Shown in pieces: positions 358 through 13,710 of a stretch of 13,710 nt of DNA. Both the position numbers and the translations under genes were made by a program. Numbering within the stretch: position 1 is the stretch's first letter; each line of letters begins with the position of its first letter. Origin of the DNA: a virus (lineage: Duplodnaviria > Heunggongvirae > Uroviricota > Caudoviricetes); the IMG/VR virus record IMGVR_UViG_2693429700_000003, positions 1 through 13,710 of that record, one strand, 5' to 3'. The notes under the pieces are model-generated. The model did not search any database and was not told the DNA's origin. It saw nothing but the letters and a program-made list of their open reading frames with translations.

Positions 358-449
358 TTTGTTTTACCTCATTACAGATTTAAGGGTGAACAAATCCCTG
401 CCATTGCTGGCATATAAGAATGAAACCGGATATTTATTACGGAACTGTT

Positions 450-641
450 TTAAAGACCTGCCGGGATTTCGTTATTATCCTGGTGAATAACTTTATCGAC
501 CGGGTAACAGTTACCGGGAATTTTCTGTTCGGTTGCTGCAGTCACACACTCCTGCATTGTCCTGTGAACACTGACTGCAATATCAACTGGCTCTCCGGAA
601 ACAAGAAAAACTGTCAGAACAAGTGCAAATGCTGTATTCAT
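450..641 (-). CDS. Small membrane protein, 63 aa, YdfD-like (N-terminal hydrophobic helix MNTAFALVLTVFLVSG)
   Basis: Internal ATG of track ORF 450..695; AAAGGA 8 nt upstream; start overlaps the stop of the upstream gene (ATGA at 641-638), indicating translational coupling; size and position match ydfD of Qin. Confidence 0.65.
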   Translation of the reverse strand: MNTAFALVLTVFLVSGEPVDIAVSVHRTMQECVTAATEQKIPGNCYPVDKVIHQDNNEIPAGL

Positions 642-826
642 TGTGCACATCCTTTTTGTATCGGACGTAAACGGGCCAGCATTGAAAGAATGCATATTTT
701 ATTTAATAACTCCCGTTCGTGTTTTCTCTTGTTAATGGCATCTTCAGTAAATACAGGGTTACTGATAGTGACACCAATTTCAAAACAACCTTCAGACGTA
801 TTAACGTTTGGTAATAACGTTTCCAT
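638..826 (-). CDS. dicB: DicB-type cell-division inhibitor, 62 aa
   Basis: Internal ATG (826) of track ORF 638..931 with GAGGA 9 nt upstream; product METLLPNVNTSEGCFEIGVTISNPVFTEDAINKRK... agrees with my recollection of E. coli DicB (62 aa); lies immediately 3' of DicF as in Qin. Confidence 0.7.
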   Translation of the reverse strand: METLLPNVNTSEGCFEIGVTISNPVFTEDAINKRKHERELLNKICILSMLARLRPIQKGCAQ

Positions 827-995
827 TATCGCGTCCTCAACAATGAATTTTGTGATGCGGTGCCTGGTGCCTCCAGGTGACGTTAACCAGTTAACAATTA
901 ACGCCGGATACAGAGAATCCACCCATAACACTGTTTTTGGTTTTAACTGTTCCGCGTGCGCTGAGCCGCATTCACCGCATCACAAAATTCACTTT

Positions 996-1053
996 AAAAA
1001 GGGCGGCAGAGCAGTCACGGAGTAAAACTGATACCGCCAAACGTCACCAGAAA
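996..1053 (-). ncRNA. dicF: DicF small regulatory RNA (antisense regulator of ftsZ mRNA) with its intrinsic terminator hairpin and U-tail
   Basis: Minus-strand sequence TTTCTGGTGACGTTTGGCGGTATCAGTTTTACTCCGTGACTGCTCTGCCGCCCTTTTT matches my recollection of DicF essentially base for base; GGCGG...CCGCC stem followed by a T-run. Confidence 0.85.
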
Positions 1054-1384
1054 ATTGATAACAGAGGGCGTTGCAGCGGGGTTGTCGCTTAAGCGTATGG
1101 TCAACCTGACAACCCGGTGTCCTCAACGGGGAAGGAATAACCCCGCCATACTTACCGCCGCGCCATTTCGCGGAGTGCCACAACCGGAAGCGCACGGTCG
1201 AACTAAATTTAACGACACCGTACAGAGAGACCAATTTCGCCGTGCGCTTTCGCGTTATGCCCTGACTTTTCAGGGACATATCCTTTCAGTAAACTGTCAG
1301 TGCCGGATGTTCACCCGTGTCCGGCGCACGCACTCCACCTGACCCGTGGAGAACTCCTTAATTACCAACCCTCAGGAGGGTGAA

Positions 1385-1663
1385 ATGGATAAAAAGCAAA
1401 TTGAGGCCCTGCAATCTATTATTGAAAAACAAGATGAAGCTATCAGGATTCTTTCATATCGCACTGATATGATACTAAATATGCTTTCTGCATTAACGGC
1501 TGCGCTTGGTGGTACAAAAACAAACGTATACCGCGAAGTTGTTATTCAACAGATAGATAAATTTGAAAAAACCATACCAGGTATTAATGCTCATCTTGCA
1601 GAACAAGAGAAAGACCATGCTCTTATGGCAATTTCTTCAGTAGCTCTCCCGAAAGTTGAGTAG
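1385..1663 (+). CDS. Hypothetical protein, 92 aa, predicted helical/coiled-coil; opposite orientation to the surrounding operon
   Basis: ATG at 1385 preceded by AGGAGGG 5 nt upstream (internal start of track ORF 1346..1663); AT-rich; no competing minus-strand ORF of 60 aa or more across 1280-1622; 3' end overlaps the convergent 137-aa gene by 41 nt. Confidence 0.55.
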   Translation: MDKKQIEALQSIIEKQDEAIRILSYRTDMILNMLSALTAALGGTKTNVYREVVIQQIDKFEKTIPGINAHLAEQEKDHALMAISSVALPKVE

Positions 1664-2036
1664 TTTTAATTGTTGTTTTGAAATAATCACTGCTTTCACA
1701 TTTGAGTGATTTCATGGCAATCCAAATGCGGGCCTCTGTGCCTGCATTTGGTTCCAGTTGCTGTAGACGTTTTGCGTCTTCCAAAAGTAAGGCGATAATG
1801 TGTTTCAGCTTCTCATCATTTGCTTGATTCTTGTTTTCAGGCGAATTCTGTCCGCCGAATAGGCGCTTCTCTTCATACAGACCTATAAAGGCACGACGCA
1901 CGTTACCGGATATAGTATCGATGGTTTCTTTTTCTACGGTACTCAGGTCAAGAGTCGCCAGTTGAGAGCGAACCACATTCGATGCCATTTCCTGGAATGG
2001 TACTGGTAAATCTTTAAATTCCATCGTCAACCTCAT
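1623..2036 (-). CDS. Hypothetical protein, 137 aa (133 aa if started at ATG 2024 with GAGG upstream); unknown function
   Basis: Track ORF; start ATG overlaps the stop of the upstream ydfA-like gene (ATGA at 2038-2034); AT-rich relative to flanks. Confidence 0.65.
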   Translation of the reverse strand: MRLTMEFKDLPVPFQEMASNVVRSQLATLDLSTVEKETIDTISGNVRRAFIGLYEEKRLFGGQNSPENKNQANDEKLKHIIALLLEDAKRLQQLEPNAGTEARIWIAMKSLKCESSDYFKTTIKTTQLSGELLKKLP

Positions 2037-2188
2037 CAGTCAGTGTTTCTGGTTAACCAGCGACGCGCGCCAGCTTCAGTTTTAAACGTTTTGCTTCTGG
2101 TATACGCCATCGCGGTAAACGTGCCGTCCTGGTTGGGAAACACGCCGTACACCAGAGATTCGTTGTTGCCAAGATCGATAGTATCCAT
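2036..2188 (-). CDS. Small protein, 50 aa, YdfA-like first gene of the repressor-controlled leftward operon
   Basis: Internal ATG (2188) of track ORF 2036..2281 with GAGG 5 nt upstream; the track's longer start at 2281 lies inside the predicted promoter/operator and has no RBS; product MDTIDLGNNESLVYGVFPNQDGTFTAMAYTRSKTFKTEAGARRWLTRNTD. Confidence 0.55.
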   Translation of the reverse strand: MDTIDLGNNESLVYGVFPNQDGTFTAMAYTRSKTFKTEAGARRWLTRNTD

Positions 2189-2265
2189 GCTGACCTCATT
2201 TCCCCTTAACGCCAGGGTAGCGGAACTGTTTGCTGAGAACACCGTGCGGTGTCTTGATGGGTGGT

Positions 2266-2320
2266 AATTTAGTTTTCTCATGAAGGTTGGTCAAGCGTTT
2301 TTAATGAGAAAACTCAATAT
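2266..2320 (-). promoter_or_regulatory. Leftward early promoter with repressor operators (dicB-operon promoter equivalent): -35 TTGACC (plus 2289-2294 complement), 17-bp spacer, -10 TAAATT (2266-2271 complement)
   Basis: 14-bp TGAGAAAACTCAAT at 2305-2318 is identical to the operator at 2839-2852 in the repressor/cro intergenic region; inverted partial copy at 2271-2283. Confidence 0.5.
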
Positions 2321-2379
2321 TTAATGCAAAATAAAGCCAATACATTGAAATGTAAGGCTTTAAAATTTGTGAAGGGGGG

Positions 2380-2787
2380 TTACTGATGTTTGTTACGTTT
2401 GCGAGCTTCTAGTAGCTCGGTGAATAGGCGATTAAAATTCTCAACGCGGGCACGGAGTTCGCTGATTTGTGCTTGCTGCTCTGATTTTGGAAGTGCGCGA
2501 TACAATCGCAACATCTCCAACTCATCTTCCGATAAGTCTAAGGCGCTGTTGAGTGCAACTGGTGGATCTGGTGTTTTATCCTCGTCACCAAACAGTATCC
2601 AAGTTGGTGAACATTGCAATACCTCAGCCAGGCGATGCAAATTTTGCCCACGCGGGGCTGTATGGTCGCTTTCCCATAGTGAAATTGATGAGCCAGATAC
2701 GCCAGCGGCTTTGCTTAAATCGTTTTGACTTAAACCAACCTGTTTGCGTCTTTCTCTAATTCGTTGACCTAAAGTTTTCTCGTTCAT
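2380..2787 (-). CDS. dicA: DicA-type HTH (Xre/cI-like) prophage repressor, 135 aa
   Basis: Track ORF; N-terminal HTH (LSQNDLSKAAGVSGSSISLWE); motif VLQCSPTWILFGDEDK matches my recollection of E. coli DicA; divergent from a cro-like gene with operators between them. Confidence 0.8.
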   Translation of the reverse strand: MNEKTLGQRIRERRKQVGLSQNDLSKAAGVSGSSISLWESDHTAPRGQNLHRLAEVLQCSPTWILFGDEDKTPDPPVALNSALDLSEDELEMLRLYRALPKSEQQAQISELRARVENFNRLFTELLEARKRNKHQ

Positions 2788-2864
2788 ATTTAGATATCTT
2801 AATAACCCTTGACTTGAGATTCCTTGAGTGATTACTATTGAGAAAACTCAATTTTGGAGGGGTG
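2788..2864. promoter_or_regulatory. Divergent immunity-switch region: rightward promoter (-35 TTGACT 2809-2814, -10 ATTACT/TACTAT 2831-2838) and operator half-sites TTGAG/CTCAA, including the palindrome TTGAGAAAACTCAA (2839-2852)
   Basis: Direct inspection; the palindrome sits between the -10 and the cro RBS GGAGG (2855-2859). Confidence 0.55.
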
Positions 2865-3092
2865 ATGTTTAAATCAGACGTAATTAATTTTTATGGGACG
2901 AAAGCCAAAGTAGCGAAAGCTGCTGGTGTTGATCCATCTGCTGTTTCTCAATGGGGGGAGCTGGTTCCTGAAGGTCGCGCGATGCGCCTGCAAGAGGCAT
3001 CCGGCGGGGAACTTCAGTACGACCCCAAAGTTTATGACGAATATCGTAAGGCAAAGCGGGCGGGGCGGTTGAACAATGAAAATCACCCCTGA
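2865..3092 (+). CDS. dicC: Cro-like HTH regulator, 75 aa (DicC-type)
   Basis: ATG 2865 with GGAGG 5 nt upstream (track ORF 2838..3092 begins at an upstream TTG); divergent from the repressor; C-terminal PEGRAMRLQEASGGELQYDP fits the DicC/Cro family as I recall it. Confidence 0.7.
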   Translation: MFKSDVINFYGTKAKVAKAAGVDPSAVSQWGELVPEGRAMRLQEASGGELQYDPKVYDEYRKAKRAGRLNNENHP

Positions 3093-3627
3093 ACAGGTTT
3101 GTGAGGCTCTGGATGCCTGGGTGTGCCGACCAGGAATGACACAGGAGCAGGCGACGATATTAATCACGGAAGCATTCTGGGCTCTGAAAGAACGCCCGAA
3201 CATCGATGTTCAACGCGTCACGTTTAATGATGGCGAGGTTGATCAACGGGCGCTGGGCGTTAACCGGGTGAAGATATTCGAACGCTGGAAAGCTATCGAC
3301 ACCAGGGATAAGCGGAAAAAATTCACGGCGCTGATTCCGGCAATTATGGAGGCTATCCGAATTAGTGATTTCAGGTTGTATCGTGAGATCAGTGATGGAA
3401 AAAGCATTACGTACATGATCGCCGGATTAAACAAAGAATATGGCGATGTGGTGGAGTCCGGGCTGCTTTTTGCGGATCCAGCTGTTGTGGAACGTGAGAC
3501 TGACGAGCTTATAGAAAAAGCTATTGCTTTCAAGCATGCGTATCGTCAGCAATATCAATATTACTTTGCAGATAAACAAATGTCTGCCAGGGGTTCGTAT
3601 GAGTATCGATGCACTACGATGGGCTAA
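3076..3627 (+). CDS. Hypothetical early protein, 183 aa, in the CII position (possibly a YdaT-like CII analogue; function unverified)
   Basis: Track ORF; start overlaps the cro-like stop and end overlaps the O-like start, so it is in the rightward early operon. Confidence 0.6.
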   Translation: MKITPEQVCEALDAWVCRPGMTQEQATILITEAFWALKERPNIDVQRVTFNDGEVDQRALGVNRVKIFERWKAIDTRDKRKKFTALIPAIMEAIRISDFRLYREISDGKSITYMIAGLNKEYGDVVESGLLFADPAVVERETDELIEKAIAFKHAYRQQYQYYFADKQMSARGSYEYRCTTMG

Positions 3628-4639
3628 AAAGGTGAAAACCGGCAGTTCATCCAGTAAGTCTGTATTGACCTGGCTTGCTGATATGTGCGGTGCCGATTTG
3701 TGTGCATACCCGTCTGTATCTGCACTGGCAGAAGTAACGGAACTAAACAAAAAGACTGTGCAGGACAGCTTACGACACCTGATGGAGATTGGGTTAATTG
3801 TTGATACCGGTGAGAGAAAAGGCAGAACAAAGCAAATTGTGGTGTACCGACTTATCGGTGTAGAAGAAAGTGTTGCCGAGCCTGAATACACCCAAAAACG
3901 GGAGTCTTTAAAGGTGGGTAAAATTGGCGCTGTTAATAAAAACAGTACCGAAAATGGTTATGTTTCAGCACAAAACAGACCCAAAAACGGAACTCTTAGC
4001 TGCATGGAAAATAACCAAAGACACCCAAATTTTCCATCAAAGACACCCAAAAACGGATCACGGAACCCAAAGGAACCCAAAGATCTAAACCCCACACATA
4101 ACGCACGCGAGAGTGCTCCGACCAGTGAGCAGGAAGTTTTGTCGTTACAGGCAGCACCCCTTGTATTCCTGTATGGCCTGAGCGAACCCATCGGAAAATT
4201 TCCGATGACCGATAGCTGGTATCCGTCACGGGATTTTCGACGACGGGCTGCGTTGTGGGGGATGGCTTTGCCGGAGACAGAATTTACACCTGCTGAACTT
4301 GCCGCCTTCCGGGACTACTGGGCAGCGGAGGGGAAAGTGTTTACGCAGATTCAGTGGGAGCAGAAATTCGCCCGTCACGTAAATCACGTCAGGGCGCAGG
4401 TTAAACCAGTCAGCAAGGGGGTAAACCATGCAGCAGCACCAGGTGGCACCGCATCACGGGCAGTTCAGGAAATTCGGGCAGCACGTGAGCAGTGGGAACG
4501 TGAAAACGGATTTATCAGCGACGGAAACGGTCTGGAAGCTGTGGGAACTCATGGGGGAGGTTTATTCGAACCGCTGGACCCAGAAGAACGGGGCCGCACC
4601 TTCGAAGCTCTGGATTGCACAGATTGGCGCGATGACTGA
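3599..4639 (+). CDS. Replication initiator (lambda O-like role): N-terminal DNA-binding region, iteron-bearing linker, DnaT-like C-terminal segment; 346 aa as an ORF, but the true C-terminus may be earlier
   Basis: ATG 3599 (internal start of track ORF 3524..4639); N-terminal MSIDALRWAKKV...SVLTWLADMCG; origin-like iterons inside the coding region; followed by a P-like gene; the last ~70 codons are low-complexity and overlap the P-like frame. Confidence 0.65.
   Translation: MSIDALRWAKKVKTGSSSSKSVLTWLADMCGADLCAYPSVSALAEVTELNKKTVQDSLRHLMEIGLIVDTGERKGRTKQIVVYRLIGVEESVAEPEYTQKRESLKVGKIGAVNKNSTENGYVSAQNRPKNGTLSCMENNQRHPNFPSKTPKNGSRNPKEPKDLNPTHNARESAPTSEQEVLSLQAAPLVFLYGLSEPIGKFPMTDSWYPSRDFRRRAALWGMALPETEFTPAELAAFRDYWAAEGKVFTQIQWEQKFARHVNHVRAQVKPVSKGVNHAAAPGGTASRAVQEIRAAREQWERENGFISDGNGLEAVGTHGGGLFEPLDPEERGRTFEALDCTDWRDD
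3888..4085. repeat. Iteron cluster / putative phage origin of replication inside the initiator gene
   Basis: Repeated (A)GACACCCAAAAACGG-type units at 3888-3902, 3977-3990, 4018-4030 (variant), 4041-4056, plus two short AACCCAAAG copies at 4064-4082; in lambdoid phages the ori lies within the O linker region. Confidence 0.6.
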
Positions 4640-5093
4640 GCAGCAAATCCGACAGGTCTGCCGCCAGTGCATGGACCGCTGCCGGGCGGGTGAAACATGG
4701 CCTCCGGACCTGGCTGAGTTTGTGGCACTGATTTCGGAAAGCGGAGCCAATCCATTCGGTCTGACGGTGGATGCTGTGATGGAGGAGTACCGCCGCTGGC
4801 GCAATGAGTCCTGGCGATATGACGGAAGTGATAAGTACCCGTGGTCTCAGCCTGTGCTGTATCACATTTGCCTCGAGATGCGTTCAAAGGGGATTGAGCG
4901 CCAGATGACCGAAGGGGAATTAAAACGGCTTGCAGAACGGCAGCTGGCGAAATGGGCAAAGCATGTTAGTAACGGCCTGAGCGTTCCGCCAGTCCGGCGA
5001 CAACTGGCGGCACCCAAACGCCCGTCGGGGCCAACGCCAATTGAGTTGCTGAAACAGGAATATGAACGCCGGAAAGCGGCTGGGTTTGTTTGA
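4428..5093 (+). CDS. Lambda P-like replication protein (helicase loader), 221 aa; alternative starts at 4551 or 4632
   Basis: Track ORF; GGGGG 7 nt upstream of ATG 4428; by-eye similarity to lambda P (YPWSQPVLYHICLEMR vs YPWKSNAHYWLVTNLY; ELKRLAERQL vs AELRRKAADEL); no Walker A motif, so not DnaC-like. Confidence 0.65.
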   Translation: MQQHQVAPHHGQFRKFGQHVSSGNVKTDLSATETVWKLWELMGEVYSNRWTQKNGAAPSKLWIAQIGAMTEQQIRQVCRQCMDRCRAGETWPPDLAEFVALISESGANPFGLTVDAVMEEYRRWRNESWRYDGSDKYPWSQPVLYHICLEMRSKGIERQMTEGELKRLAERQLAKWAKHVSNGLSVPPVRRQLAAPKRPSGPTPIELLKQEYERRKAAGFV

Positions 5094-5125
5094 GTTGAGA
5101 AGTAATTTTTACCGGGAGGAAATTT

Positions 5126-5887
5126 ATGGAGACTGTTTTTGACGCACTGAAAGCGATGGGAAAAGCCACGTCGGTAGAACTGGCTGCGCGACTTGATATC
5201 AGTCGTGAAGAAGTGCTGAACGAACTATGGGAACTGAAAAAGGCTGGTTTCGTTGATAAAAGCGCGTACACCTGGCGTGTGGCTTATAACAACGTTCAGC
5301 GGGAACAGCCAGCGTCGGCAGAACTGTCGGAAGAAACCACCACGGCAACAGTCGCTAAAATTTCGGAGAGCGATTTAACTGCGACGATTGAACAACGTGG
5401 CCCACAAACGGCGGATGAACTGGCTACGTTTTTCGGCATCACATCACGCAAAGTGGCTTCAACGCTGGCAATGGCAATCAGTAAAGGTCGTCTGATTCGC
5501 GTTAATCAGAACGGTAAATTTCGTTACTGCATGCCGGGCGATAATTTACCAGCAGAGCCGAAAGCTGCATCGGTAGCGGAAACTGATGGTAAAGCCTTTC
5601 CTCAGCCAGCCGGTGTTGCGTTACCAGTACAGGAAGCTGCAACACAGGAAGATATTAAAACAGAAACTGTGGCGGACATTGTGCAGTCGTTGCCATCGTT
5701 TACCGAAACGCAAGCAGATGAGCTGATTTTTCCGTCCCTGCGCAGGGCAAACCTGGCGCTGCGCAGGGCGAAAAGTGATGTTCAGAAGTGGGAGCGAGTC
5801 TGCGCCGCGCTGCGGGAGCTGAACAAGCACCGGGATATTGTTCGACAGATTACTGATTCTTCCCGCCGTGTTGTATCGGAAAAGTGA
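5126..5887 (+). CDS. Hypothetical protein, 253 aa, with winged-helix-like segments at the N-terminus and mid-protein
   Basis: Track ORF; GGGAGG 7 nt upstream of ATG. Confidence 0.7.
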
Positions 5888-5902
5888 TTGCCGGAGGCGC
5901 TT

Positions 5903-6325
5903 ATGGCAAAAGTATTTACACAAGAAGAGCGGGAAAAAATTAAAGGGCAGGTTGTTGAACTAGTACGCCGGAGTGGGCGCGAGATGTTACGGCAACTGGA
6001 AGCCAAGACAGGTGCGACAAGATATCTGATGAGCGTTCTCGCCAGAGAGCTGGTTGCCAGTGGCGATGTATACAACTCTGGTTACGGGTTATTCCCGTCT
6101 GAACAGGCTCGTAAGGACTGGCAAAATGCCCGCAAAAAACTATCTAGGGCAAAGGTGAAGAAACCATCTGTGGTTGATCCGGATCTTATCTGGTCATTAC
6201 CAGACGGAGAAATACGCCGCTACGACAGGCGTCTGAACATAATCTGTAGCGAGTGCCGGAAGAGCGAAGCTATGCAGCGTGTACTGGCTTTCTATCAGGG
6301 TAATTTTCAGAAGGTGCTGTTGTGA
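5903..6325 (+). CDS. Hypothetical protein, 141 aa
   Basis: ATG 5903 with GGAGG 5 nt upstream (track ORF 5888..6325 begins at an upstream TTG). Confidence 0.65.
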   Translation: MAKVFTQEEREKIKGQVVELVRRSGREMLRQLEAKTGATRYLMSVLARELVASGDVYNSGYGLFPSEQARKDWQNARKKLSRAKVKKPSVVDPDLIWSLPDGEIRRYDRRLNIICSECRKSEAMQRVLAFYQGNFQKVLL

Positions 6326-6430
6326 GCCAAATTAACAATCGGAACTTCGTGAAGAGAAAGCATAATCCAAATCTGAATAATTAAGTTCAGCACTGTAAAT
6401 AAAATTTAATCCTTAACTGGAGGTATATTT

Positions 6431-6643
6431 ATGTTAAATACACAGAAAGCCATTAATGCGGAAAAATATAACGAGTGGGCAAGAAAATTCTCTGAGCAGA
6501 TTTTTAAAATTACTGGCGATGAGAATGTGGCAAAAAATGAATTAGAACCGTGGACACCTGAAGGAAACGCACCAAATTATTGCTGGTGGGAGGTTGATCC
6601 GGTTGATGCTGCAAATGAAGCCATGAGTTACCACAACGATTAA
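6431..6643 (+). CDS. Hypothetical small protein, 70 aa, in an AT-rich moron
   Basis: Track ORF; TGGAGG 7 nt upstream of ATG; marked drop in GC relative to flanks. Confidence 0.6.
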   Translation: MLNTQKAINAEKYNEWARKFSEQIFKITGDENVAKNELEPWTPEGNAPNYCWWEVDPVDAANEAMSYHND

Positions 6644-6675
6644 TGTCGGGAGGCCGCCCGAAAGGGCGGTAAGAA

Positions 6676-6894
6676 ATGACTACATTATTCAGAAAAGAAT
6701 ATCCGCAAAAAAGTAGGGCGACAGAATTTTTGTTTCTCATTCTGTTTATCGTATTGATGATACCGATATCCCCTCTAATTTTTGTCTGGGCAATCGGGAA
6801 AATAATTGAGCCAGTTACTGAATTGTATACCGACGTTGTATGGGCGTCGTTCAACACACTGCACAATAAAATTAATCCGTATAAGGAAAACTGA
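6676..6894 (+). CDS. Small membrane protein, 72 aa (hydrophobic core FLFLILFIVLMIPISPLIFVWAIG)
   Basis: Track ORF; follows a GC-rich hairpin (6652-6670); stop lies 1 nt before the next ATG. Confidence 0.55.
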   Translation: MTTLFRKEYPQKSRATEFLFLILFIVLMIPISPLIFVWAIGKIIEPVTELYTDVVWASFNTLHNKINPYKEN

Positions 6895-6895
6895 T

Positions 6896-7159
6896 ATGGC
6901 AACTTTGACAAAAAAAGAACGGGCATGGTTAAACGAATTACAGGAAGTTCTTGATCGCTGTCCATCACCGAAAAAAATTGGCTTTTACACCATTGGCGAT
7001 AAAAGCATTTACCTGTATGACCTACGCCGCATGGATGAAATCATGGAGGCTCTTGATAATCGTTCGTCGATGGATTGGTGTGTTGCTGTTCATGATATGA
7101 ATGCAGGGTTTGATGAAAAGATTTTGTTCCCCTCATCAGTTGAAAGCACTGCGGGTTAA
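6896..7159 (+). CDS. Hypothetical protein, 87 aa
   Basis: ATG 6896 with AAGGAAAA upstream (internal start of track ORF 6806..7159). Confidence 0.6.
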   Translation: MATLTKKERAWLNELQEVLDRCPSPKKIGFYTIGDKSIYLYDLRRMDEIMEALDNRSSMDWCVAVHDMNAGFDEKILFPSSVESTAG

Positions 7160-7169
7160 GGAGTAACAC

Positions 7170-8039
7170 ATGACCACTATTACCAAAGAACGTATTGAAT
7201 TGTTCATTAAAAATCCGGTTGAAAACGGGCTTACCCGTGGTGAACAAATGGAACTGGCACGGATTGCGCTGGCATCGCTGGAAGCAGAGCCGGTGGCAAA
7301 GATTATAGCTCATTACCCATTAGGGGTTGACGTAGGCAAACAAAAATTCGTACAGGCCATTAGAGAGCTTCCTGACTTTGGCGGATATCTATTTGCCGCC
7401 CCTCCAGCGCCGATAGTGCCGGAAGAAATGTATTGGCAGGATGCGCCAGTTGAAGGCAGCAGCAAAGCGGCTGCATACGCTACAGGCTGGAACGATTGCC
7501 GCGAAGCCATGCTTCAGTCCGGAAACTTTCGGGAAAATAAAGATTCGTCAACCAATAATTTTCGGAAAATCCCGGAAGCGTCAACCAGCTCTCCGGTAAC
7601 TCCGGCTCTTCTGCCTGGTGGTTTCACCATTGAGGAGGCGAAGGAATTACATGAAGACCTGGTACGCAGCCACATAAGCAAGGCCTTAAGTGGCGAAAAG
7701 ATGAAAAAGAAAGATCGCGATGCTGATTTGCGCTGGATTCATGGCGTTATAGTTCAGGCAGCGTGGTTTGTAAAAGCATCACTGGAGCAGAATGCACTAT
7801 CGGGCAACTATCCGGTAACTCCGGATAGTTGGATAAGCTGTAGTGAGCGAATGCCGGATACCAAAACAGCCGTTCTTGTTGCCGTGGAGTTTGACAGGAA
7901 AGGTGACTGGCGAATGAAATGGGCGACTTACATCCCGGGTCATCCTGACGCTAATGATGGGTGGATAATTCCTGGTGCGTCGTGGAAACCGTCACACTGG
8001 ATGCCGCTACCAGAACCGCCGCAGGAGGTGCGCCAATGA
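7170..8039 (+). CDS. Prophage protein, 289 aa, with DUF551-like C-terminal domain (...SHWMPLPEPP)
   Basis: Track ORF; AAGGAG upstream; the C-terminal tryptophan/proline-rich signature is typical of DUF551 proteins of enterobacterial prophages. Confidence 0.7.
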   Translation: MTTITKERIELFIKNPVENGLTRGEQMELARIALASLEAEPVAKIIAHYPLGVDVGKQKFVQAIRELPDFGGYLFAAPPAPIVPEEMYWQDAPVEGSSKAAAYATGWNDCREAMLQSGNFRENKDSSTNNFRKIPEASTSSPVTPALLPGGFTIEEAKELHEDLVRSHISKALSGEKMKKKDRDADLRWIHGVIVQAAWFVKASLEQNALSGNYPVTPDSWISCSERMPDTKTAVLVAVEFDRKGDWRMKWATYIPGHPDANDGWIIPGASWKPSHWMPLPEPPQEVRQ

Positions 8040-8119
8040 ACTGGCCTGAAGCATTTGCAATTACAGGCGTTGCTATGGCTATCGCTTTTTTAGTATATGT
8101 TATTTGTCGGTGGGGGTAA
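8036..8119 (+). CDS. Tiny hydrophobic peptide, 27 aa (MNWPEAFAITGVAMAIAFLVYVICRWG)
   Basis: Not in the ORF track (too short); GGAGG 8 nt upstream; ATG overlaps the stop of the DUF551 gene (ATGA at 8036-8039); predicted single transmembrane helix. Confidence 0.45.
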   Translation: MNWPEAFAITGVAMAIAFLVYVICRWG

Positions 8120-8154
8120 AAACGTTCGCCGGGATTAACACCAAAGGAGGGAAT

Positions 8155-8259
8155 ATGTCGGATGATATATCACTGGCAATGGAAGGTGCGCTGGCTGTTG
8201 TTGCTGTTGTGGGCGTTTACTGCCTGGTTGTGTTTTTGATGGATCGACTAGGGAACTGA
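8155..8259 (+). CDS. Tiny hydrophobic peptide, 34 aa (MSDDISLAMEGALAVVAVVGVYCLVVFLMDRLGN)
   Basis: Not in the ORF track; AAAGGAGGG 4 nt upstream of ATG; predicted single transmembrane helix. Confidence 0.45.
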   Translation: MSDDISLAMEGALAVVAVVGVYCLVVFLMDRLGN

Positions 8260-8267
8260 ATTCATTA

Positions 8268-8289
8268 CGATATGGGAATTCCCATATCG
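8268..8289. repeat. Perfect 22-bp palindrome CGATATGGGAATTCCCATATCG (candidate protein-binding site or RNA hairpin)
   Basis: Direct inspection; centred on GAATTC; immediately downstream of the second tiny peptide ORF. Confidence 0.6.
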
Positions 8290-8448
8290 GGTAAAAACGG
8301 TTTGCGGGAAAAGGAGAGTTAAGTAGAATTGCTGCGGGTGCTTGAGGCTATCTGTCTCAGGCATGAACACCAAAAGGCAGATAGAGAAAAGCCCCAGTTA
8401 ACATTACGCGTCCGGCAAGACGCTTAACATTAATCTGAGGCCATATCT

Positions 8449-8655
8449 ATGCTCTACACACGTAGGTTAGCCTCTTACGGACCGAAAGGTCAAGGAGAAG
8501 CAGGCTATGAAGCAGCAAAAGGCGATGTTAATCGCCCTGATCGTCATCTGTTTAACCGTCATAGTGACGGCACTGGTAACGAGGAAAGACCTCTGCGAGG
8601 TACGAATCCGAACCGGCCAGACGGAGGTCGCTGTCTTCACAGCTTACGAACCTGA
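8449..8655 (+). CDS. mok-like overlapping reading frame (translation-coupling frame of a hok locus), 68 aa
   Basis: Track ORF; starts 58 nt upstream of hok and overlaps it out of frame, as mok does in hok/sok loci. Confidence 0.5.
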   Translation: MLYTRRLASYGPKGQGEAGYEAAKGDVNRPDRHLFNRHSDGTGNEERPLRGTNPNRPDGGRCLHSLRT

Positions 8656-8662
8656 GGAGTAA
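8507..8662 (+). CDS. hokD: Hok-family type I toxin (HokD/RelF-like), 51 aa
   Basis: Manual translation MKQQKAMLIALIVICLTVIVTALVTRKDLCEVRIRTGQTEVAVFTAYEPEE matches the Hok/Gef family as I recall it (hydrophobic helix then TRKxLCEVR motif); not in the ORF track (too short). Confidence 0.85.
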   Translation: MKQQKAMLIALIVICLTVIVTALVTRKDLCEVRIRTGQTEVAVFTAYEPEE

Positions 8663-8731
8663 GAGACCCGGCGAGGGAGAAATCCCTCGCCACCTCTGAT
8701 GTGGCAGGCATTCTCAACGCACCCGCACTTA

Positions 8732-8760
8732 ACCCGCTTCGGCGGGTTTTTGTTTTTATT
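8732..8760 (+). terminator. Rho-independent terminator at the 3' end of the hok mRNA
   Basis: ACCCGC-TTCG-GCGGGT hairpin followed by TTTTTGTTTTTATTTT. Confidence 0.75.
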
Positions 8761-8878
8761 TTCAACGCATTTGAAGTTCTGGACGGTGCCGGAATAGAAT
8801 CAAAAATACTTAAGTAGCGCGCAGGGATAAGAGGGATGGTCCCTTAAAGGGGAGAGCTAATTATCCGGAAGGATTCTG

Positions 8879-9130
8879 ATGATGAACATCGAAGAACTGC
8901 GTAAAATTTTTTGTGAAGATGGCCTCTATGCTGTGTGCGTTGAAAATGGAAATATTGTTAGTCATTACCGCATTGTGTGTTTGCAAAAAAATGGGGCTGC
9001 GTTAATTAATTTTGTGGATGCCCGAGTGACGGACGGATTTATCTTGCGCGACGGTGAGTTTGTCACTTCATTACAGGTATTGAAAGAGATCGGAATAAAA
9101 GCTGGCTTTTCTGCTTTTTCAGAAGAATAA
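8879..9130 (+). CDS. Hypothetical protein, 83 aa (same size and position as rem next to hokD in Qin; sequence identity unverified)
   Basis: Track ORF; GGAAGGA upstream. Confidence 0.6.
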   Translation: MMNIEELRKIFCEDGLYAVCVENGNIVSHYRIVCLQKNGAALINFVDARVTDGFILRDGEFVTSLQVLKEIGIKAGFSAFSEE

Positions 9131-9196
9131 ACTCATCTACAATCTTGCGCGGGGCTGAACTCCCGCTGAGTAACACCGTGCCACCGGAGAAAACCG

Positions 9197-9475
9197 ATGG
9201 CACGCAACGCAAAATATTACAAACATGATAATTCGACCGTTCTTGCCCACACGCACGAGCGGTATTCTCACGCATTTAAGTCAGACTGGTACCAGCATCC
9301 CCCATGCACTGAAGAACAGGCCGAATGGCTCATTCAGTGTTACCGCAGGCGCGGATGCGAGGTTAAAAAAGCCCTTAGCCTCGACTACCGTCACTGGATA
9401 ATCTCCGTCAGGCTGCCTTACTCCGAACGCCCACCGCGTCCGTCCCGCACATTCCAGCAACGCATCTGGAGGTAA
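9197..9475 (+). CDS. Hypothetical protein, 92 aa
   Basis: Track ORF; GGAGAAAA upstream of ATG. Confidence 0.55.
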   Translation: MARNAKYYKHDNSTVLAHTHERYSHAFKSDWYQHPPCTEEQAEWLIQCYRRRGCEVKKALSLDYRHWIISVRLPYSERPPRPSRTFQQRIWR

Positions 9476-9476
9476 C

Positions 9477-10535
9477 GTGCGGGTATTACTTCGACCTGTT
9501 CTGGTACCGGAACTCGGGCTGGTGATCGTTAAGCCGGGCCGTGAATCCATGCCGGTATTCCACAATACCCGGGTACTGGTGGAGCCGGAACCGAAAAGCA
9601 TGCGTAATCTGCCGTCCGGGGTCGTTCCTGCCGTTCGCCAGCCGCTGGCGGAGGATAAATCATTACTGCCATTTTTCAGCGACGAACGAGTGATTCGTGC
9701 TGCTGGTGGCGCTGGCGCACTGTCTGACTGGCTCCTGCGTCATGTCAAATCCTGCCAGTGGCCTCATGGTGACTACCATCACAGTGAAACCGTCATACAT
9801 CGTTATGGTACCGGCGCAATGGTGTTGTGCTGGCACTGCGACAACCAGCTGCGCGACCAGACCTCCGAATCACTCGGGCAACTTGCTCACCAAAACCTGT
9901 CTGCATGGATGATTGACGTCATACGCCATGCAATGAATGGCTCGCAGGAACGGGAATTATCGCTGGCTGAATTATCCTGGTGGGCGGTCCGCAATCAGGT
10001 GGCGGACGCGCTACCGGAAGCGGTATTACGTCGTTCGCTGGGGTTGCGTGCGGAAAAAATCCGCTCAATGTACCGTGAAAGCGACATCGTACCGGGAGAG
10101 CAGACCGCCACCAGCATACTGAAGCAGCGCACAAAAAATATTGCTCCGTTGCCTCACGCCCACCAGCAACAGAATCCACCACAGGAAAAGACGGTGGTCA
10201 GCATTGCCGTTGATCCGGAGTCACCGGCTCAGTATCTCCAGCGCCAGAAACCACAACGGGAAGATATGCCTGTATACACGCGTTGGGTAAAAACGCAGAA
10301 ATGCATGACGTGTGGCAATCAGGCAGATGATCCGCATCACATCATTGGTCATGGACTGGGAGGGATGGGAACAAAGGCTGATGATTTGTTTGTTATTCCG
10401 CTGTGCCGTAAATGCCATAGCGAACTACACGCCGGGGTAAAAGATTTTGAAGAAAAACACGGCAGCCAGCTGTTGTTGCTGATTCGTTTTTTAATGCACG
10501 CGAGAAATTCGGGTGTCCTGAAGTGGAAAGCATGA
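9477..10535 (+). CDS. DUF968-like prophage protein (YdfU-like), 352 aa, with C-terminal HNH/His-Me-finger-like motif
   Basis: Track ORF, GTG start with GGAGG 7 nt upstream; C-terminal CMTCGNQADDPHHIIGHGLGG...PLCRKCHSELH. Confidence 0.7.
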   Translation: MRVLLRPVLVPELGLVIVKPGRESMPVFHNTRVLVEPEPKSMRNLPSGVVPAVRQPLAEDKSLLPFFSDERVIRAAGGAGALSDWLLRHVKSCQWPHGDYHHSETVIHRYGTGAMVLCWHCDNQLRDQTSESLGQLAHQNLSAWMIDVIRHAMNGSQERELSLAELSWWAVRNQVADALPEAVLRRSLGLRAEKIRSMYRESDIVPGEQTATSILKQRTKNIAPLPHAHQQQNPPQEKTVVSIAVDPESPAQYLQRQKPQREDMPVYTRWVKTQKCMTCGNQADDPHHIIGHGLGGMGTKADDLFVIPLCRKCHSELHAGVKDFEEKHGSQLLLLIRFLMHARNSGVLKWKA

Positions 10536-10901
10536 ATGACTGAACGCATAGAATTTGTTTTGCCTTACCCGCCAACGGTGAACACTTACTGGCGACGTCG
10601 TGGCAGCACATATTTTGTATCAAAAGCCGGTGAGCGTTATCGCCGTGATGTGGCGCTTATTGTTCGCCAGCAGCGGCTGAAATTAAACCTGTCCGGAAGG
10701 CTGGCGATAAAGATTATTGCAGAGCCACCGGATAAGCGTCGTCGTGACCTGGACAATATCCTGAAAGCACCACTGGATGCGCTGACGCATGCCGGACTTC
10801 TCATAGACGACGAGCAGTTTGATGAAATCAATATTGTGCGCGGTCAGCTCGTTCCTGGGGGGCGGCTGGGCGTGAAGATTTACAAAATTGAGAGTGAGTG
10901 A
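10536..10901 (+). CDS. rusA: RusA Holliday-junction resolvase, 121 aa
   Basis: Track ORF; motifs PYPPTVNTYWRR and DKRRRDLDNILKAPLDALTHAG match my recollection of E. coli RusA; start overlaps the upstream stop. Confidence 0.85.
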   Translation: MTERIEFVLPYPPTVNTYWRRRGSTYFVSKAGERYRRDVALIVRQQRLKLNLSGRLAIKIIAEPPDKRRRDLDNILKAPLDALTHAGLLIDDEQFDEINIVRGQLVPGGRLGVKIYKIESE

Positions 10902-11452
10902 TCGTAAATATGATATATCCGGAAATTACAGGCAAAAGCGGCGAGCATTTACGTCTAAAAACGCTGGAAGCCGTCTGGATCCAGGGGAAATTACGGATGT
11001 GGGGGCGTTGGTCGTATATAGGTGGTGGCAAACCAGGAAATATGTTCAATCAGTTGCTGACATCCAAAAAACTGACAAAAACCGCGATCAATGAAGCCCT
11101 GCGTAGAATCAGGGAGTCAGGGATTGATAAACCAGAGCTGGAAGCATTCTTGCGAGAGATGATCGCTGGCAGACAGAAGAGCTGGTTGTCTCACTGTACT
11201 GATGCAGAGGCGTTACGCATTGATGGGGTGATAAGTAAAGCGCTTGCACGTTATCCTGGATTGATTGATATCCTGCGGCAAAGGTACGAAGGGCGGGGGA
11301 TGAGTAAACGCAAAATGGCTGAATTGTTGAATGAGGTTCACCCTGAGTGGTGCTATGCAACATGCCGCAATCGTATAGATATGTGGCTGAGAATAGCTGA
11401 GTTTATTCTGTATCCACTGATGCGAGATGCATTTTCTTTTACTGACGCTTAG
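10898..11452 (+). CDS. Late-gene antiterminator Q, 184 aa (alternative ATG at 10910)
   Basis: Track ORF (GTG start overlapping the rusA stop); lies immediately upstream of a promoter-plus-terminator region, the classic Q/PR'/tR' layout; family assignment is by position and size. Confidence 0.6.
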   Translation: MIVNMIYPEITGKSGEHLRLKTLEAVWIQGKLRMWGRWSYIGGGKPGNMFNQLLTSKKLTKTAINEALRRIRESGIDKPELEAFLREMIAGRQKSWLSHCTDAEALRIDGVISKALARYPGLIDILRQRYEGRGMSKRKMAELLNEVHPEWCYATCRNRIDMWLRIAEFILYPLMRDAFSFTDA

Positions 11453-11618
11453 AATCTGGAGGGCGTTTGTTGTTGCACGAAGAGGATTTTTGGCTGGTAG
11501 TAAGGTTTGTGCAGTTTTAGAAAAAAAGCTTGTATTTTTAGCCATAAACTGTTTCAATCCAGCTACGCTTCGCAAAGCTGTACCGCGAGGCGAATAGCAG
11601 ACATGGACACCTGAAAGA
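11453..11618 (+). promoter_or_regulatory. Putative late promoter PR' / Q-utilisation region (exact -35/-10 not resolved)
   Basis: 166-bp non-coding AT-rich segment between Q and a strong intrinsic terminator; candidate TTGNNN hexamers at about 11471 and 11508. Confidence 0.45.
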
Positions 11619-11641
11619 ACCCGCTTTATGCGGGTTTTTTT
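11619..11641 (+). terminator. Rho-independent terminator (tR' equivalent)
   Basis: ACCCGC-TTTAT-GCGGGT hairpin followed by TTTTTTT. Confidence 0.8.
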
Positions 11642-11764
11642 ATGCCTGAAAAACGGCACAGAACATTAAACGCGCTGGTTGTTGTGAATACTGGTCTTTC
11701 AGCTTGCTGGCTTTTTCGACAAGAGGTATTGGTATGTCACGTTAACCGGAAAAGGGAAAAAGGC

Positions 11765-11962
11765 ATGCTAAAACAGCAGGATATGACCGAAACCGCCAGA
11801 GTGGTGTTTAATGAATTAAGCGTCACCGAACCGGCGACCGTCGGGGAAATTGCGCAGAATACTGACCTTTCACGCGAACGCTGCCAGTTAATACTGACTC
11901 AGCTTGTTATGGCGGGTCTGGCAGATTATCAGTTCGGTTGTTACAGACGCCTTCCGCAGTGA
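11765..11962 (+). CDS. Small winged-helix-like DNA-binding protein, 66 aa
   Basis: Internal ATG (11765) of track ORF 11642..11962 with AGGGAAAAAGG upstream; the N-terminal extension from 11642 starts right after the terminator T-run without an RBS and looks non-protein-like. Confidence 0.5.
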   Translation: MLKQQDMTETARVVFNELSVTEPATVGEIAQNTDLSRERCQLILTQLVMAGLADYQFGCYRRLPQ

Positions 11963-12112
11963 AGGCTTTTTAATTTGTGGTAATGGGCGGCTGGTGGGTG
12001 TTAGCGGCACCTGCCAGCCATCTGCTCATGCGTTGGGGTCACAAGCAAACCTCAGGCCCATCTGCTTTGCGCAAAAGCGGTATGAGCCTATCAGAGAAGT
12101 GCTTATTGATCT

Positions 12113-13162
12113 ATGGCTAATACTGTAAAAATATCCAGTTGTGAGTTAATCAACGCTGATTGCCTGGAATTTATCCAGACCTTACCGGAAAATTCTGTCG
12201 ATCTGATAGTCACAGACCCGCCATACTTTAAAGTGAAGCCCGAGGGCTGGGATAACCAGTGGGAGGGCGACGATGATTACCTGAAATGGCTGGACCAGTG
12301 TCTGGCGCAGTTCTGGCGGGTACTGAAGCCTACCGGAAGTCTTTACCTGTTCTGTGGTCATCGCCTGGCATCTGACACCGAAATCATGATGCGTGAGCGC
12401 TTTAATGTGCTGAACCACATTATCTGGGCGAAGCCGTCCGGACGCTGGAACGGGTGCAATAAGGAAAGTCTGCGGGCGTATTTTCCGGCAACAGAGCGCA
12501 TTCTGTTTGCAGAACATTATCAGGGACCGTATCGCCCGAAAGATGATGGCTATGTGGAGCAGGGGCGCGAGCTAAAACAGCACGTCATGGCCCCGCTGAT
12601 TTCTTACTTTCGTGATGCGCGTAAATCACTGGGAATAACGTCAAAACAGATAGCGGAAGCCACCGGAAAGAAAAACATGGCTTCGCACTGGTTTGGTGCC
12701 AGTCAGTGGCAGTTACCGAACGAGGGTGATTACAATAAATTGCAGGCGTTGTTTGCGCGTGTTGCGGCAGAAAAACATCAGCGCGGGGAACTGGAAAAGC
12801 CACACCACCAGCTGGTCAGCACATACAGTGAGCTGAACCGGCAGTATACGGAACTGCTGAGTGAATATAAAAATTTGCGGCGGTATTTCGGTGTGACGGC
12901 GCAGGTTCCGTACACCGATGTCTGGACGCATAAACCGGTGCAGTACTATCCAGGGAAACATCCGTGCGAAAAACCGGCAGAAATGCTGCAGCAGATAATC
13001 AACGCGAGCAGTCGTCCGGGAGACCTGGTTGCAGATTTTTTTATGGGTTCAGGTTCAACGGTAAAAGCGGCGATGGCACTGGGGCGTTGTGCGATTGGTG
13101 TTGAGCTGGAGACCGGACGTTTTGAACAGACAGTCAGGGAAGTTCAGGATTTAATCGTTTGA
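12113..13162 (+). CDS. DNA methyltransferase, beta class (N6-adenine or N4-cytosine), 349 aa; no partner restriction endonuclease in the window
   Basis: Track ORF; motif IV TDPPYF near the N-terminus and motif I FFMGSGST near the C-terminus (beta-class order). Confidence 0.8.
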   Translation: MANTVKISSCELINADCLEFIQTLPENSVDLIVTDPPYFKVKPEGWDNQWEGDDDYLKWLDQCLAQFWRVLKPTGSLYLFCGHRLASDTEIMMRERFNVLNHIIWAKPSGRWNGCNKESLRAYFPATERILFAEHYQGPYRPKDDGYVEQGRELKQHVMAPLISYFRDARKSLGITSKQIAEATGKKNMASHWFGASQWQLPNEGDYNKLQALFARVAAEKHQRGELEKPHHQLVSTYSELNRQYTELLSEYKNLRRYFGVTAQVPYTDVWTHKPVQYYPGKHPCEKPAEMLQQIINASSRPGDLVADFFMGSGSTVKAAMALGRCAIGVELETGRFEQTVREVQDLIV

Positions 13163-13211
13163 AACGGATGAGATTGCAGAATTAATTACGCACCATTATT
13201 ATTCTGCTCCC

Positions 13212-13287
13212 GGCCCTTTAGCTCAGTGGTGAGAGCGAGCGACTCATAATCGCCAGGTCGCTGGTTCAAATCCAGCAAGGGCCACCA
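13212..13287 (+). tRNA. tRNA with CAU anticodon, ileX/ileZ-like (tRNA-Ile2 type read after lysidine modification; Met not excluded)
   Basis: Manual cloverleaf: acceptor GGCCCTT/AAGGGCC, D-arm TAGCTCAGTGGTGAGAGC, anticodon loop CTCATAA, T-loop GGTTCAAATCC, 3' ACCA; close to my recollection of E. coli ileX. Confidence 0.8.
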
Positions 13288-13288
13288 A

Positions 13289-13365
13289 CCGCCACTAGCT
13301 CATCAGGAAAGAGCGTCAACCCTTTAAGTTGAGTGTGCGAGGTTCGAGTCCCCGGTGGCGGTCCA
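13289..13365 (+). tRNA. tRNA of uncertain identity: anticodon loop CCUUUAA (UUU at positions 34-36, Lys-like, but with non-canonical C33)
   Basis: Manual cloverleaf: acceptor CCGCCAC/GTGGCGG (perfect 7 bp), D-stem GCTC/GAGC, anticodon stem TCAAC/GTTGA, T-arm with TTCGAGT loop and one mismatch, 3' TCCA; starts 1 nt after the preceding tRNA. Confidence 0.55.
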
Positions 13366-13367
13366 GT

Positions 13368-13443
<76 letters not shown>

Positions 13444-13446
13444 TAT

Positions 13447-13521
<75 letters not shown>

Positions 13522-13525
13522 GTTA

Positions 13526-13573
13526 GAGTCTTTCAGTCTGCGATGATGGGAAATCCCGGAGTGACTGAAAGAC
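13526..13573 (+). other. Structured element after the tRNA cluster: 11-bp inverted repeat GTCTTTCAGTC / GACTGAAAGAC around a 24-nt loop that itself contains GGGAAATCCC
   Basis: Direct inspection; possible processing site or terminator-like hairpin, but no clean U-tail. Confidence 0.4.
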
Positions 13574-13580
13574 GTTTAGG

Positions 13581-13653
13581 TTATGAATGATCGCTTTTTT
13601 TTGCAAAATTGCTGTGCAGAAATACTAACCTTCGGGCAGGCGATCATTCATAA
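13581..13653. repeat. Perfect 14-bp inverted repeat TTATGAATGATCGC ... GCGATCATTCATAA separated by 45 nt, with a T8 run next to the left arm
   Basis: Direct inspection. Confidence 0.5.
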
Positions 13654-13710
13654 GCACTCTGCTTTTATTCCGATTAACTGTGGGTGGTTTGTTGGATAGA
13701 GTGCTTTCCT

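Follow-up and report, generated by a model that had tools for sequence, protein, structure and literature searches.

Do the tiny open reading frames (ORFs) that precede hok in a lambdoid prophage encode real peptides, and if so, do they form part of a further toxin system? The question is raised by a stretch of 13,710 nucleotides of tailed-phage DNA (IMG/VR record IMGVR_UViG_2693429700_000003, positions 1 to 13,710; hereafter the window, to which all positions refer), in which two ORFs of 27 and 34 codons, ORF1 and ORF2, lie between a DUF551-type gene and a hok locus, together with a direct repeat and a perfect palindrome. A first-pass annotation, made from the letters alone, had described both ORFs as uncalled genes for single-helix peptides and had likened them to type I toxins or small membrane-active phage peptides. 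Our data support the view that ORF1 and ORF2 behave as real, translated small membrane-peptide genes: sequence comparisons show a coding signature in each of them, ORF1 has a conserved gene overlap, and ORF2 has been detected by ribosome profiling in a published study. The repeat and the palindrome look like products of the mosaic architecture around the hok promoter and not like parts of a new toxin system. The result is a modest annotation finding on small phage membrane peptides, not the discovery of a new system.

ORF1 as a conserved peptide gene

ORF1 (8036..8119, + strand; ATG at 8036, TAA at 8117-8119) encodes the 27-residue peptide MNWPEAFAITGVAMAIAFLVYVICRWG, predicted to form a single helix; its best 17-residue Kyte-Doolittle mean is 2.48 (3.22 for Hok), which corresponds to one strongly hydrophobic stretch. 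As first described, its ATG overlaps the TGA (8037-8039) of the DUF551-type gene in an ATGA arrangement, and a near-consensus Shine-Dalgarno (SD) sequence, AGGAGG (8023..8028, + strand), lies inside the end of that gene, 7 nt before the ATG. A degenerate pattern scan combined with regular-expression mining of all loci fetched returned 22 unique nucleotide versions of 23-27 amino acids; their sources are lambdoid prophages, Stx prophages and the P1-like phage SJ46, and all are recognizable by the signature MxWPEAF…VYxICRW[G/R], with a shorter SJ46 variant ending in FIFWG.

Variation among these versions is of the kind expected from a coding sequence. Four different indels occur, all of them multiples of three, and codon usage varies synonymously (CGG/CGC/CGT/CGA, that is, all four CGN arginine codons; TGT/TGC; GGG/GGA/GGT; TTT/TTC). 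The pooled ratio of non-synonymous to synonymous differences per site (pN/pS) is 0.36 in the ORF1 frame as against 0.96 and 1.66 in the two shifted frames, pairwise inter-clade dN/dS values (Nei-Gojobori) range from 0.08 to 0.55, and the ORF1 frame is the only one open in all 22 versions.

The start of ORF1 overlaps the stop of at least four upstream genes (DUF551, 933W L0139, a third and a fourth gene, and SJ46 gp092). In 933W and in E. coli PSS-15, B19695 and C5 the frame stands behind different upstream genes, always with the ATGA overlap; this form is found throughout the E. coli and Shigella contexts and is replaced by TAATG in SJ46, while in every other upstream context some 5-10 nt separate the ATG from a purine-rich motif that resembles an SD. 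Start/stop overlap and an SD inside the upstream gene, the hallmarks of translational coupling, are conserved across contexts. Since the overlap persists behind different upstream genes, coupling is indicated, as the first-pass annotation had proposed from the window alone.

ORF1 also occurs without hok. The 24-residue SJ46 version, overlapping gp092, is followed by another gene and no hok, and a canonical terminator takes the place of hok behind ORF1 in the species representatives E. coli ECMA0423 and Shigella flexneri; ORF1 is therefore an independent gene and not a part of the hok cassette. Among GTDB species representatives a strict ORF1 pattern gave no match, and the matches of a relaxed one were confined to E. 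coli, to Shigella flexneri and to two short contigs taken for contaminants. These two, a 1780-nt contig of a Segatella copri metagenome-assembled genome (L143) and a 431-nt Xanthomonas pisi contig (L145), carry E. coli Stx-prophage DNA including ORF1 and the hok promoter, and are probably contamination of the respective assemblies.

For ORF1 the description as uncalled is essentially right: it is unannotated in the RefSeq records of E. coli 2013C-4187 and Sakai, with sporadic calls elsewhere (ETJ68712.1, ASL59204.1). At 84 nt it falls below the length limit of Prodigal. Neither the window peptide nor its 933W allele found a family in Pfam, NCBIfam, PHROGs or PADLOC beyond chance level. A 90% cluster mixing ORF1 with 121-residue DUF551 proteins had suggested a DUF551-ORF1 fusion and was discarded as an artefact, because those DUF551 proteins end before ORF1. 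Judged from these comparisons, ORF1 is a real, conserved gene under protein-level constraint that is almost never annotated. Standard annotation has overlooked it even in reference Stx phages such as 933W, and many prophages of pathogenic E. coli would be annotated more correctly if it were included.

ORF2, its divergent homologue and ribosome profiling

ORF2 (8155..8259, + strand; ATG at 8155, TGA at 8257-8259) encodes a 34-residue, predicted single-helix peptide, again with one strongly hydrophobic stretch (best 17-residue mean 2.94). Its SD, AAAGGAGGG (8143..8151, + strand), is near consensus and conserved as AAAGGAGGG or AAGGGAGGG in 38/38 unique contexts, in all of which ORF2 is preceded by ORF1 and the first copy of the repeat. 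Here the label "uncalled" fails. The identical allele is annotated by PGAP in E. coli 2013C-4187 (WP_001278454.1), and the RefSeq record of Sakai lists the same gene, at the same place between ORF1 and hok, as ECs_5710 of prophage Sp6, with V16I as the sole residue difference. The exact peptide and a one-residue variant are each found on roughly a thousand contigs.

Fourteen nucleotide versions were distinguished among 123 copies of ORF2. They differ by 25 distinct substitutions (14 at third positions; 13 synonymous and 12 non-synonymous), which gives a per-site non-synonymous/synonymous ratio of 0.33, counts that carry the caveat that the search pattern held the first 11 codons fixed; all four CGN codons are used. 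An exhaustive phmmer search of 1.84 billion representatives with ORF2 returned near-identical sequences only. A divergent homologue, ORF2', was first read in locus L014 and is present on at least 114 viral contigs, where it is now and then annotated as "membrane protein". It comprises 29 residues from a GTG start 5 nt after AGGAGG, aligns with ORF2 without gaps at 66% nucleotide identity and stops at the same position; the two proteins reach a Smith-Waterman score of 75, where shuffles give 23.8±4.5, and pN/pS between the two is 0.47. Both gave only chance-level matches in Pfam, NCBIfam, PHROGs and PADLOC; the best matches of the family scans, run with ORF1, its 933W allele, ORF2, ORF2' and a 59-residue protein described below, were PTR2/POT (E 0.0015), phrog_38566 (E 0.0065) and Cmr5 (E 0.04). 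The two ORFs of the window were also considered as paralogues arisen by tandem duplication, an idea we rejected, as scores barely exceeded those of composition-matched shuffles (p 0.008-0.5, 12 tests).

Two features of the ORF2' clade deserve separate mention. Upstream of ORF2' there is a conserved non-coding segment of about 215 nt, which starts with the hairpin GTCCGCTTTTCGCTCAAAGCGGAC (positions 2620-2930 of locus L150, and about 110 other viral loci). A relic of ORF2', its last 8 codons (…MDHLSD*), is fused behind an unrelated gene just upstream of hok in L274, L270 and related loci, which shows recombination within the small ORF.

Translation of ORF2 is documented in published ribosome profiling of E. 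coli O157:H7 Sakai, in which it appears as XECs145 (MCYLSVGVKTFAGIHTKGGN-MSDDISLAMEGALAVIAVVGVYCLVVFLMDRLGN), a model of ORF2 whose start was artificially extended (Hücker et al. 2017, PMC5597208, S2 Table). In LB, XECs145 reached 79.1 reads per kilobase per million mapped reads (RPKM) for RNA and 346.1 RPKM for footprints, a ribosome coverage value (RCV, footprints over RNA) of 4.35 and a coverage of 0.99; the mean RCV of annotated short genes was 1.55 (PMC5597208). Across the uninduced cultures, in which spontaneous induction is possible, RNA ranged over 79-121 and footprints over 150-346 RPKM (PMC5597208). The long N-terminus of the model arises because the study took the farthest upstream start, rare codons included, in this case an ATA (PMC5597208); the actual start is likely to be the conserved ATG at 8155 behind AAAGGAGGG. 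The ribosome-profiling supplement for strain EDL933 contains neither the ORF1 nor the ORF2 peptide, and no publication was retrieved in searches on the accession, on the motif of the peptide, on the palindrome or on hokW. ORF2 is a real gene under protein-level constraint and ribosome-occupied in uninduced cultures. Because its peptide is translated in lysogens, it may affect host membrane physiology or phage exclusion. What we describe is a tiny orphan peptide of O157 prophages that was already known as a hypothetical gene with ribosome-profiling support.

It could still be argued that neither ORF is a gene and that their conservation stems from recent common descent or from constraint on the DNA or RNA. 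ORF2 is indeed little diverse and confined to E. coli-type prophages, and some copies of ORF1 and of ORF2 are interrupted by stops or frameshifts. The frame-specific synonymous excess and in-frame indels of ORF1, the existence of a homologous ORF2' clade with the same stop position at 66% nucleotide identity, and the footprints on ORF2 (PMC5597208) speak against this explanation, which we regard as very improbable.

Comparison with type I toxins

A second possibility is that one or both peptides are type I toxins silenced, like the neighbouring Hok, by antisense RNA or mRNA folding. Their size (27 and 34 residues), their single hydrophobic helix and their position adjoining a true hok/sok/mok locus are all compatible with it, as is the long conserved non-coding segment before the ORF2' start, which recalls the leaders of toxin mRNAs. 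Several of the expected parts are missing all the same. Neither peptide has a Pfam or NCBIfam match (E ≤ 1) to Hok/Gef (PF01848), Ibs, Ldr, TisB, ShoB, DinQ or Zor, and Smith-Waterman scores against Hok are no better than those of shuffles (p 0.08-0.56). In the window neither ORF forms a stand-alone unit with its own promoter and long structured leader: ORF1, which is coupled to at least four different genes before it, lacks a leader, and only 35 nt separate its stop from the ATG of ORF2, an interval with no usable promoter and no unusual fold (z -1.18). The ORF2' leader folds with ordinary energy (z +0.44) and has neither an Rfam match nor a consensus promoter.

On the opposite strand, where an antisense RNA would be sought, a simple scan gives two weak promoter-like sites (8120→8092 and 8179→8152), which would suit the toxin reading; the other ORF1 clade has not conserved the sequence that holds them, and positions 7900-8400 contain no Rfam family at E ≤ 10 besides the hok leader. 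ORF2, moreover, is translated with above-average efficiency in exponentially growing Sakai (PMC5597208). The likeness to type I toxins lies in size, hydrophobicity and neighbourhood; family membership and a leader are absent, no conserved antisense promoter was found, ORF1 is embedded in an operon and ORF2 is translated in normal growth. We consider a toxin function for either peptide unlikely, and the current understanding of type I toxins is left unchanged by these findings. The ORF2' locus was also tried as a diverged hok locus and rejected, its nucleotide local score equalling the shuffle mean, with no Rfam hok-leader match and no protein similarity.

The direct repeat as a recombination scar

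The first-pass annotation had noted that each peptide ORF is followed by a copy of the same repeat. Both copies exist, at 8114..8134 (GGGTAAAAACGTTCGCCGGGA) and 8289..8309 (GGGTAAAAACGGTTTGCGGGA) on the + strand, the second lying 1-2 nt from where it had been placed. They match at 17/21 positions without gaps around an exact 11-mer core, at a spacing of 175. The repeat is not tied to either peptide as such. Copy 2 consists of a relic of the ORF1 3' end (GGG TAA) and the upstream half of the predicted hok promoter (8302..8329, + strand), which we read from the sequence and positioned by the leader start at 8336: a -35 element TTGCGG (8302-8307), a 16-nt spacer and a -10 element TAGAAT (8324-8329). 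The equivalent site in locus L150, TTGGCG-17-TAGAAT, was flagged. Copy 1 opens with the final glycine codon and the stop of ORF1 and continues with a degenerate version of the DNA that precedes the hok promoter, its -35 being ruined (TTCGCC); it may extend, via an 8-nt indel, to the SD of ORF2 (8143-8151).

The origin of this arrangement becomes visible in 933W, PSS-15, B19695 and C5, where AAACGGTTTGCGGGAAAAGGAGAGTTAAGTAGAAT and then the 5' end of the hok leader come immediately after the ORF1 stop, so that their alignment with the window requires a single gap of 175 columns; megablast matches of the hok cassette in other genomes likewise begin at window positions 8286-8293. The repeat is the ORF1-stop/hok-promoter junction, duplicated around a 175-bp segment that holds ORF2 and the palindrome. 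As this segment lies between two copies of the junction, the direct repeat is a recombination scar, and since the ORF1 alleles on the two sides of the event differ by dS >1, the event is old. Copy 1 was considered as a promoter for ORF2 and rejected: in addition to its TTCGCC -35, its sole -10-like hexamer is without the key A, and the start would fall inside ORF2. The anatomy shows how a hok cassette joins its neighbours, which helps in reading mosaic joints and guards against taking promoter relics and junction hairpins for regulatory repeats.

The palindrome

A perfect 22-bp palindrome (11+11; 8268..8289) begins 8 nt past the ORF2 stop; by our own estimate about 0.003 such palindromes would be expected by chance in 13.7 kb. 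As RNA it would form a 9-bp stem with a 4-nt AAUU loop, with folding energies of -14.5 kcal/mol on the + strand (z -3.7) and -14.3 kcal/mol on the - strand, both far from shuffles. The sequence that comes after it reads GGUAAAAACGG on the + strand and, on the - strand, UAAUGAAUUC; a terminator scan did not report the hairpin, and because no U-run follows it on either strand, it is not a canonical terminator. Across 10 variants 98.9% of cells pair on the + strand, where the stem substitutions are G·U-compatible, the exception being a 1-nt deletion in L004 that leaves a bulge; two further changes fall in the loop.

The palindrome had been presented as a companion of ORF2. It is perfect and lies just past ORF2, as stated, and it is not specific to this gene, being found upstream of hok without ORF2 and in unrelated phage contexts. 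In PPompW phages it follows the paa/adfO region together with the last 14 nt of ORF2. In other E. coli it lies 17 nt past an ORF6N-domain gene and is followed by the ORF1-end relic and the hok promoter; in L362/L363, where it stands at this same distance, it has the opposite flank. Inside KilA-N-domain genes (L023, 4228-4989, minus strand) a 35-nt stretch that includes the palindrome (window 8258-8292) is 88.6% identical and falls in the part coding for RDMGIPIS. The KilA-N and ORF6N occurrences suggest either a captured gene fragment or recombination at the hairpin. An exact 23-mer, CGATATGGGAATTCCCATATCGG (window 8268-8290), recurs with 100% identity in intergenic DNA of many virulent Dhillonvirus phages (for example L360, phage "rolling", MN850575, 901-923), about 20 nt past the stop of a helicase/primase gene and between iteron-like GCAACCAAT repeats and GTCCCGC repeats. 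We also asked whether the palindrome might be a mini-element that duplicates its target site, and rejected this, as the flanking repeats in Dhillonvirus are multi-copy iterons and not a duplication.

These occurrences raise the alternative that the palindrome acts as double-stranded DNA and not as an RNA hairpin. It might be bound by a dimeric protein of phage or host, which may act on the hok promoter, or it might be a recombination site prone to cruciform formation. Such a role would suit a perfect dyad of 22 bp whose centre lies about 58 bp before the hok +1, as it would the identical 23-mer beside the Dhillonvirus iteron-like repeats, the presence in genes for KilA-N DNA-binding proteins and the three left-hand joints of the hok cassette (after ORF2, after the ORF6N-domain gene and after the paa/adfO region). 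A protein site or cruciform is less easily reconciled with a variable spacing to the hok -35 (about 25 nt longer in L362/L363), with stem substitutions that break the DNA dyad yet leave G·U pairs in the + strand RNA, with a 1-nt deletion in one arm that is common (26 loci) and with the single copy of the site in the window. We hold a purely DNA-level function to be unlikely, though less so than the toxin reading, and we read the palindrome as a hairpin that recurs at junctions and that, in the window, closes the ORF2 message before the hok promoter; it may also serve as a DNA site.

Linkage of small peptide genes to hok

Could the small peptides be functional partners of hok, as membrane-level modulators, antidotes or second effectors? 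The linkage is frequent. In a hok-anchored sample of viral contigs, which is highly redundant, a gene for a small hydrophobic protein ends 41-103 nt before the hok +1 in 53/95 newly fetched loci, and a further 21 re-listed loci carry ORF2 or ORF2', so that about two thirds of the hok-anchored loci have such a gene directly before hok, drawn from three apparently unrelated families. ORF2' is followed by hok in 95/111 loci, and ORF2 everywhere except in one small locus group. The third family is a 59-residue membrane protein with two hydrophobic segments (MKNALQFLFVAFWLF…INALFLGVFMAVMCIEYWR), encoded just before the hok promoter in L277, L262 and 15 other loci.

The sample contains many E. coli isolates, and because of its redundancy the linkage counts are not independent events. 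ORF1 and ORF2-family genes are also found apart from hok, 42/95 hok loci are without such peptide genes, and the three families show no detectable similarity to each other or to Hok. The minimal hok/sok cassette of plasmid R1, moreover, functions without any such small gene. A partnership with hok accordingly strikes us as improbable; the linkage could be functional or could merely reflect shared ancestry of a few prophage lineages. Equally doubtful is a wider scheme in which prophage hok is systematically preceded by a gene for a small hydrophobic peptide of one of at least three unrelated families (ORF1, ORF2/ORF2' or the 59-residue two-helix protein) that works with Hok at the membrane, be it as modulator, antidote or alternative effector, with the 22-bp palindrome as the point of cassette exchange. 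If it were true, prophage hok would be a multi-peptide module and not a solitary type I system.

Working model and comparison with known small genes

The explanation that we favour, with moderate confidence in it as a whole, is that the stretch represents a mosaic joint, situated within the early (nin-like) region of a Qin/Sp6-like lambdoid prophage and comprising two real peptide genes, a scar and a hairpin, in which the peptides are accessory products rather than toxins. Two independent, genuine genes for small inner-membrane peptides would thus stand directly upstream of the hok/sok/mok promoter. ORF1 would be made by termination-reinitiation coupling to whichever gene lies upstream, through the ATGA overlap and the SD inside that gene, and ORF2 would be translated from its own strong SD; since there is no promoter between the two, ORF2 would be read from the shared upstream transcript. 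Copy 1 of the repeat would be a dead promoter half and copy 2 the live -35 region of hok. The most likely level of action of the stem-loop is the + strand RNA, whose 3' end it would stabilize or in which it would form a partial barrier before the hok promoter, and its sequence would also recur at junctions in module exchange. The peptides presumably insert into the inner membrane, where, as moron-like accessory products of the prophage, they would most likely modulate a host membrane protein or exclude other phages.

Several observations weigh against parts of this model. ORF1 is dispensable in some lineages (W3* in phage POCJ13 and one frameshift, in L111), 8 loci carry a W26* truncation two codons before the end, and the commonest O157 allele, A17D, places an aspartate within the helix. 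ORF1 was outside the ribosome-profiling set because that study required at least 30 residues (PMC5597208). For ORF2, spontaneous induction in part of the cells, or reads that map to several places, could account for the profiling signal; O157 holds several copies of the gene, and identical ORFs were collapsed (PMC5597208). The hairpin has no compensatory double changes and no U-tract, so that its role as RNA is putative, and the 175 bp may have been either inserted here or deleted in the other lineage. The accessory, non-toxic role is our best guess from context and from translation in growing cells.

The closest parallels are the small inner-membrane proteins of E. coli, which Hemm et al. in 2008 and Weaver et al. 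in 2019 reportedly identified through ribosome-binding-site models, comparative genomics and ribosome profiling. ORF1 and ORF2 resemble them in having fewer than 50 residues, one hydrophobic helix and a strong SD, in being missed by length cut-offs and in being recognized by conservation of the frame; they differ in being prophage-borne, and ORF2 is absent from the GTDB representative genome of E. coli. A phage moron, in the concept of Juhala and Hendrix, is a single extra gene between genes that are adjacent in related phages. ORF2 with its hairpin fits this description, as 175 bp of extra DNA between ORF1 and the hok promoter, which adjoin in 933W-type phages, and it is expressed in lysogens, spontaneous induction again being possible (PMC5597208). 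Unlike a typical moron, it has no + strand promoter-like site before it (copy 1 being without a -10), and its hairpin is without the U-tract of a factor-independent terminator. The PeSLs of T4-type phages, reportedly described by Arbiol et al. in 2010 as promoter/stem-loop "mobile regulatory cassettes" flanking small ORFs, resemble our locus in having a small ORF with a stem-loop and a repeated, promoter-bearing sequence at its borders, in a place where modules are shuffled; they belong to another phage group and have another sequence, and here there are two repeat copies only, one of them degenerate.

Genomic setting

The window, which covers the early and nin-like part of a lambdoid prophage, includes a full-length gene for DicF RNA (1001-1052, - strand, 76.7 bits), genes of the DUF1627, DUF977 and DUF551 types, hok, DUF968, rusA and Q, and four tRNA genes (13212-13518, + strand). 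E. coli 2013C-4187 matches positions 8000-8340 at 100%, and 670/5426 complete E. coli genomes contain at least 80% of this interval in one match; no record of the phage collection spans 80% of 7900-8500. The comparison with K-12 drawn in the first-pass annotation was confirmed: Qin has relB-relE-hokD at the corresponding place.

The gene upstream of ORF1 (7170..8039, + strand) encodes 289 residues with a DUF551-type C-terminus (PHROG 60; its PGAP homologue is named DUF551 domain-containing protein) and contains an inverted repeat at 7805-7831, with 11-bp arms and a 5-nt loop (CAACTATCCGGTAACTCCGGATAGTTG). Downstream, the hok locus is complete (8336..8748, + strand), with the leader at 8336-8509, mok at 8449-8655, hok at 8507-8662 and a terminator at 8731-8748. 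The Rfam hok-leader family RF01794 aligns to 8336-8509, up to the hok ATG, with 109.5 bits, which places everything described above just upstream of a complete hok/mok locus. Directly past the hok terminator, a promoter-like site, TTGAAG-18-TAGAAT (8771-8800), precedes an 83-residue ORF (8879-9130) that occupies the place of rem in K-12 Qin.

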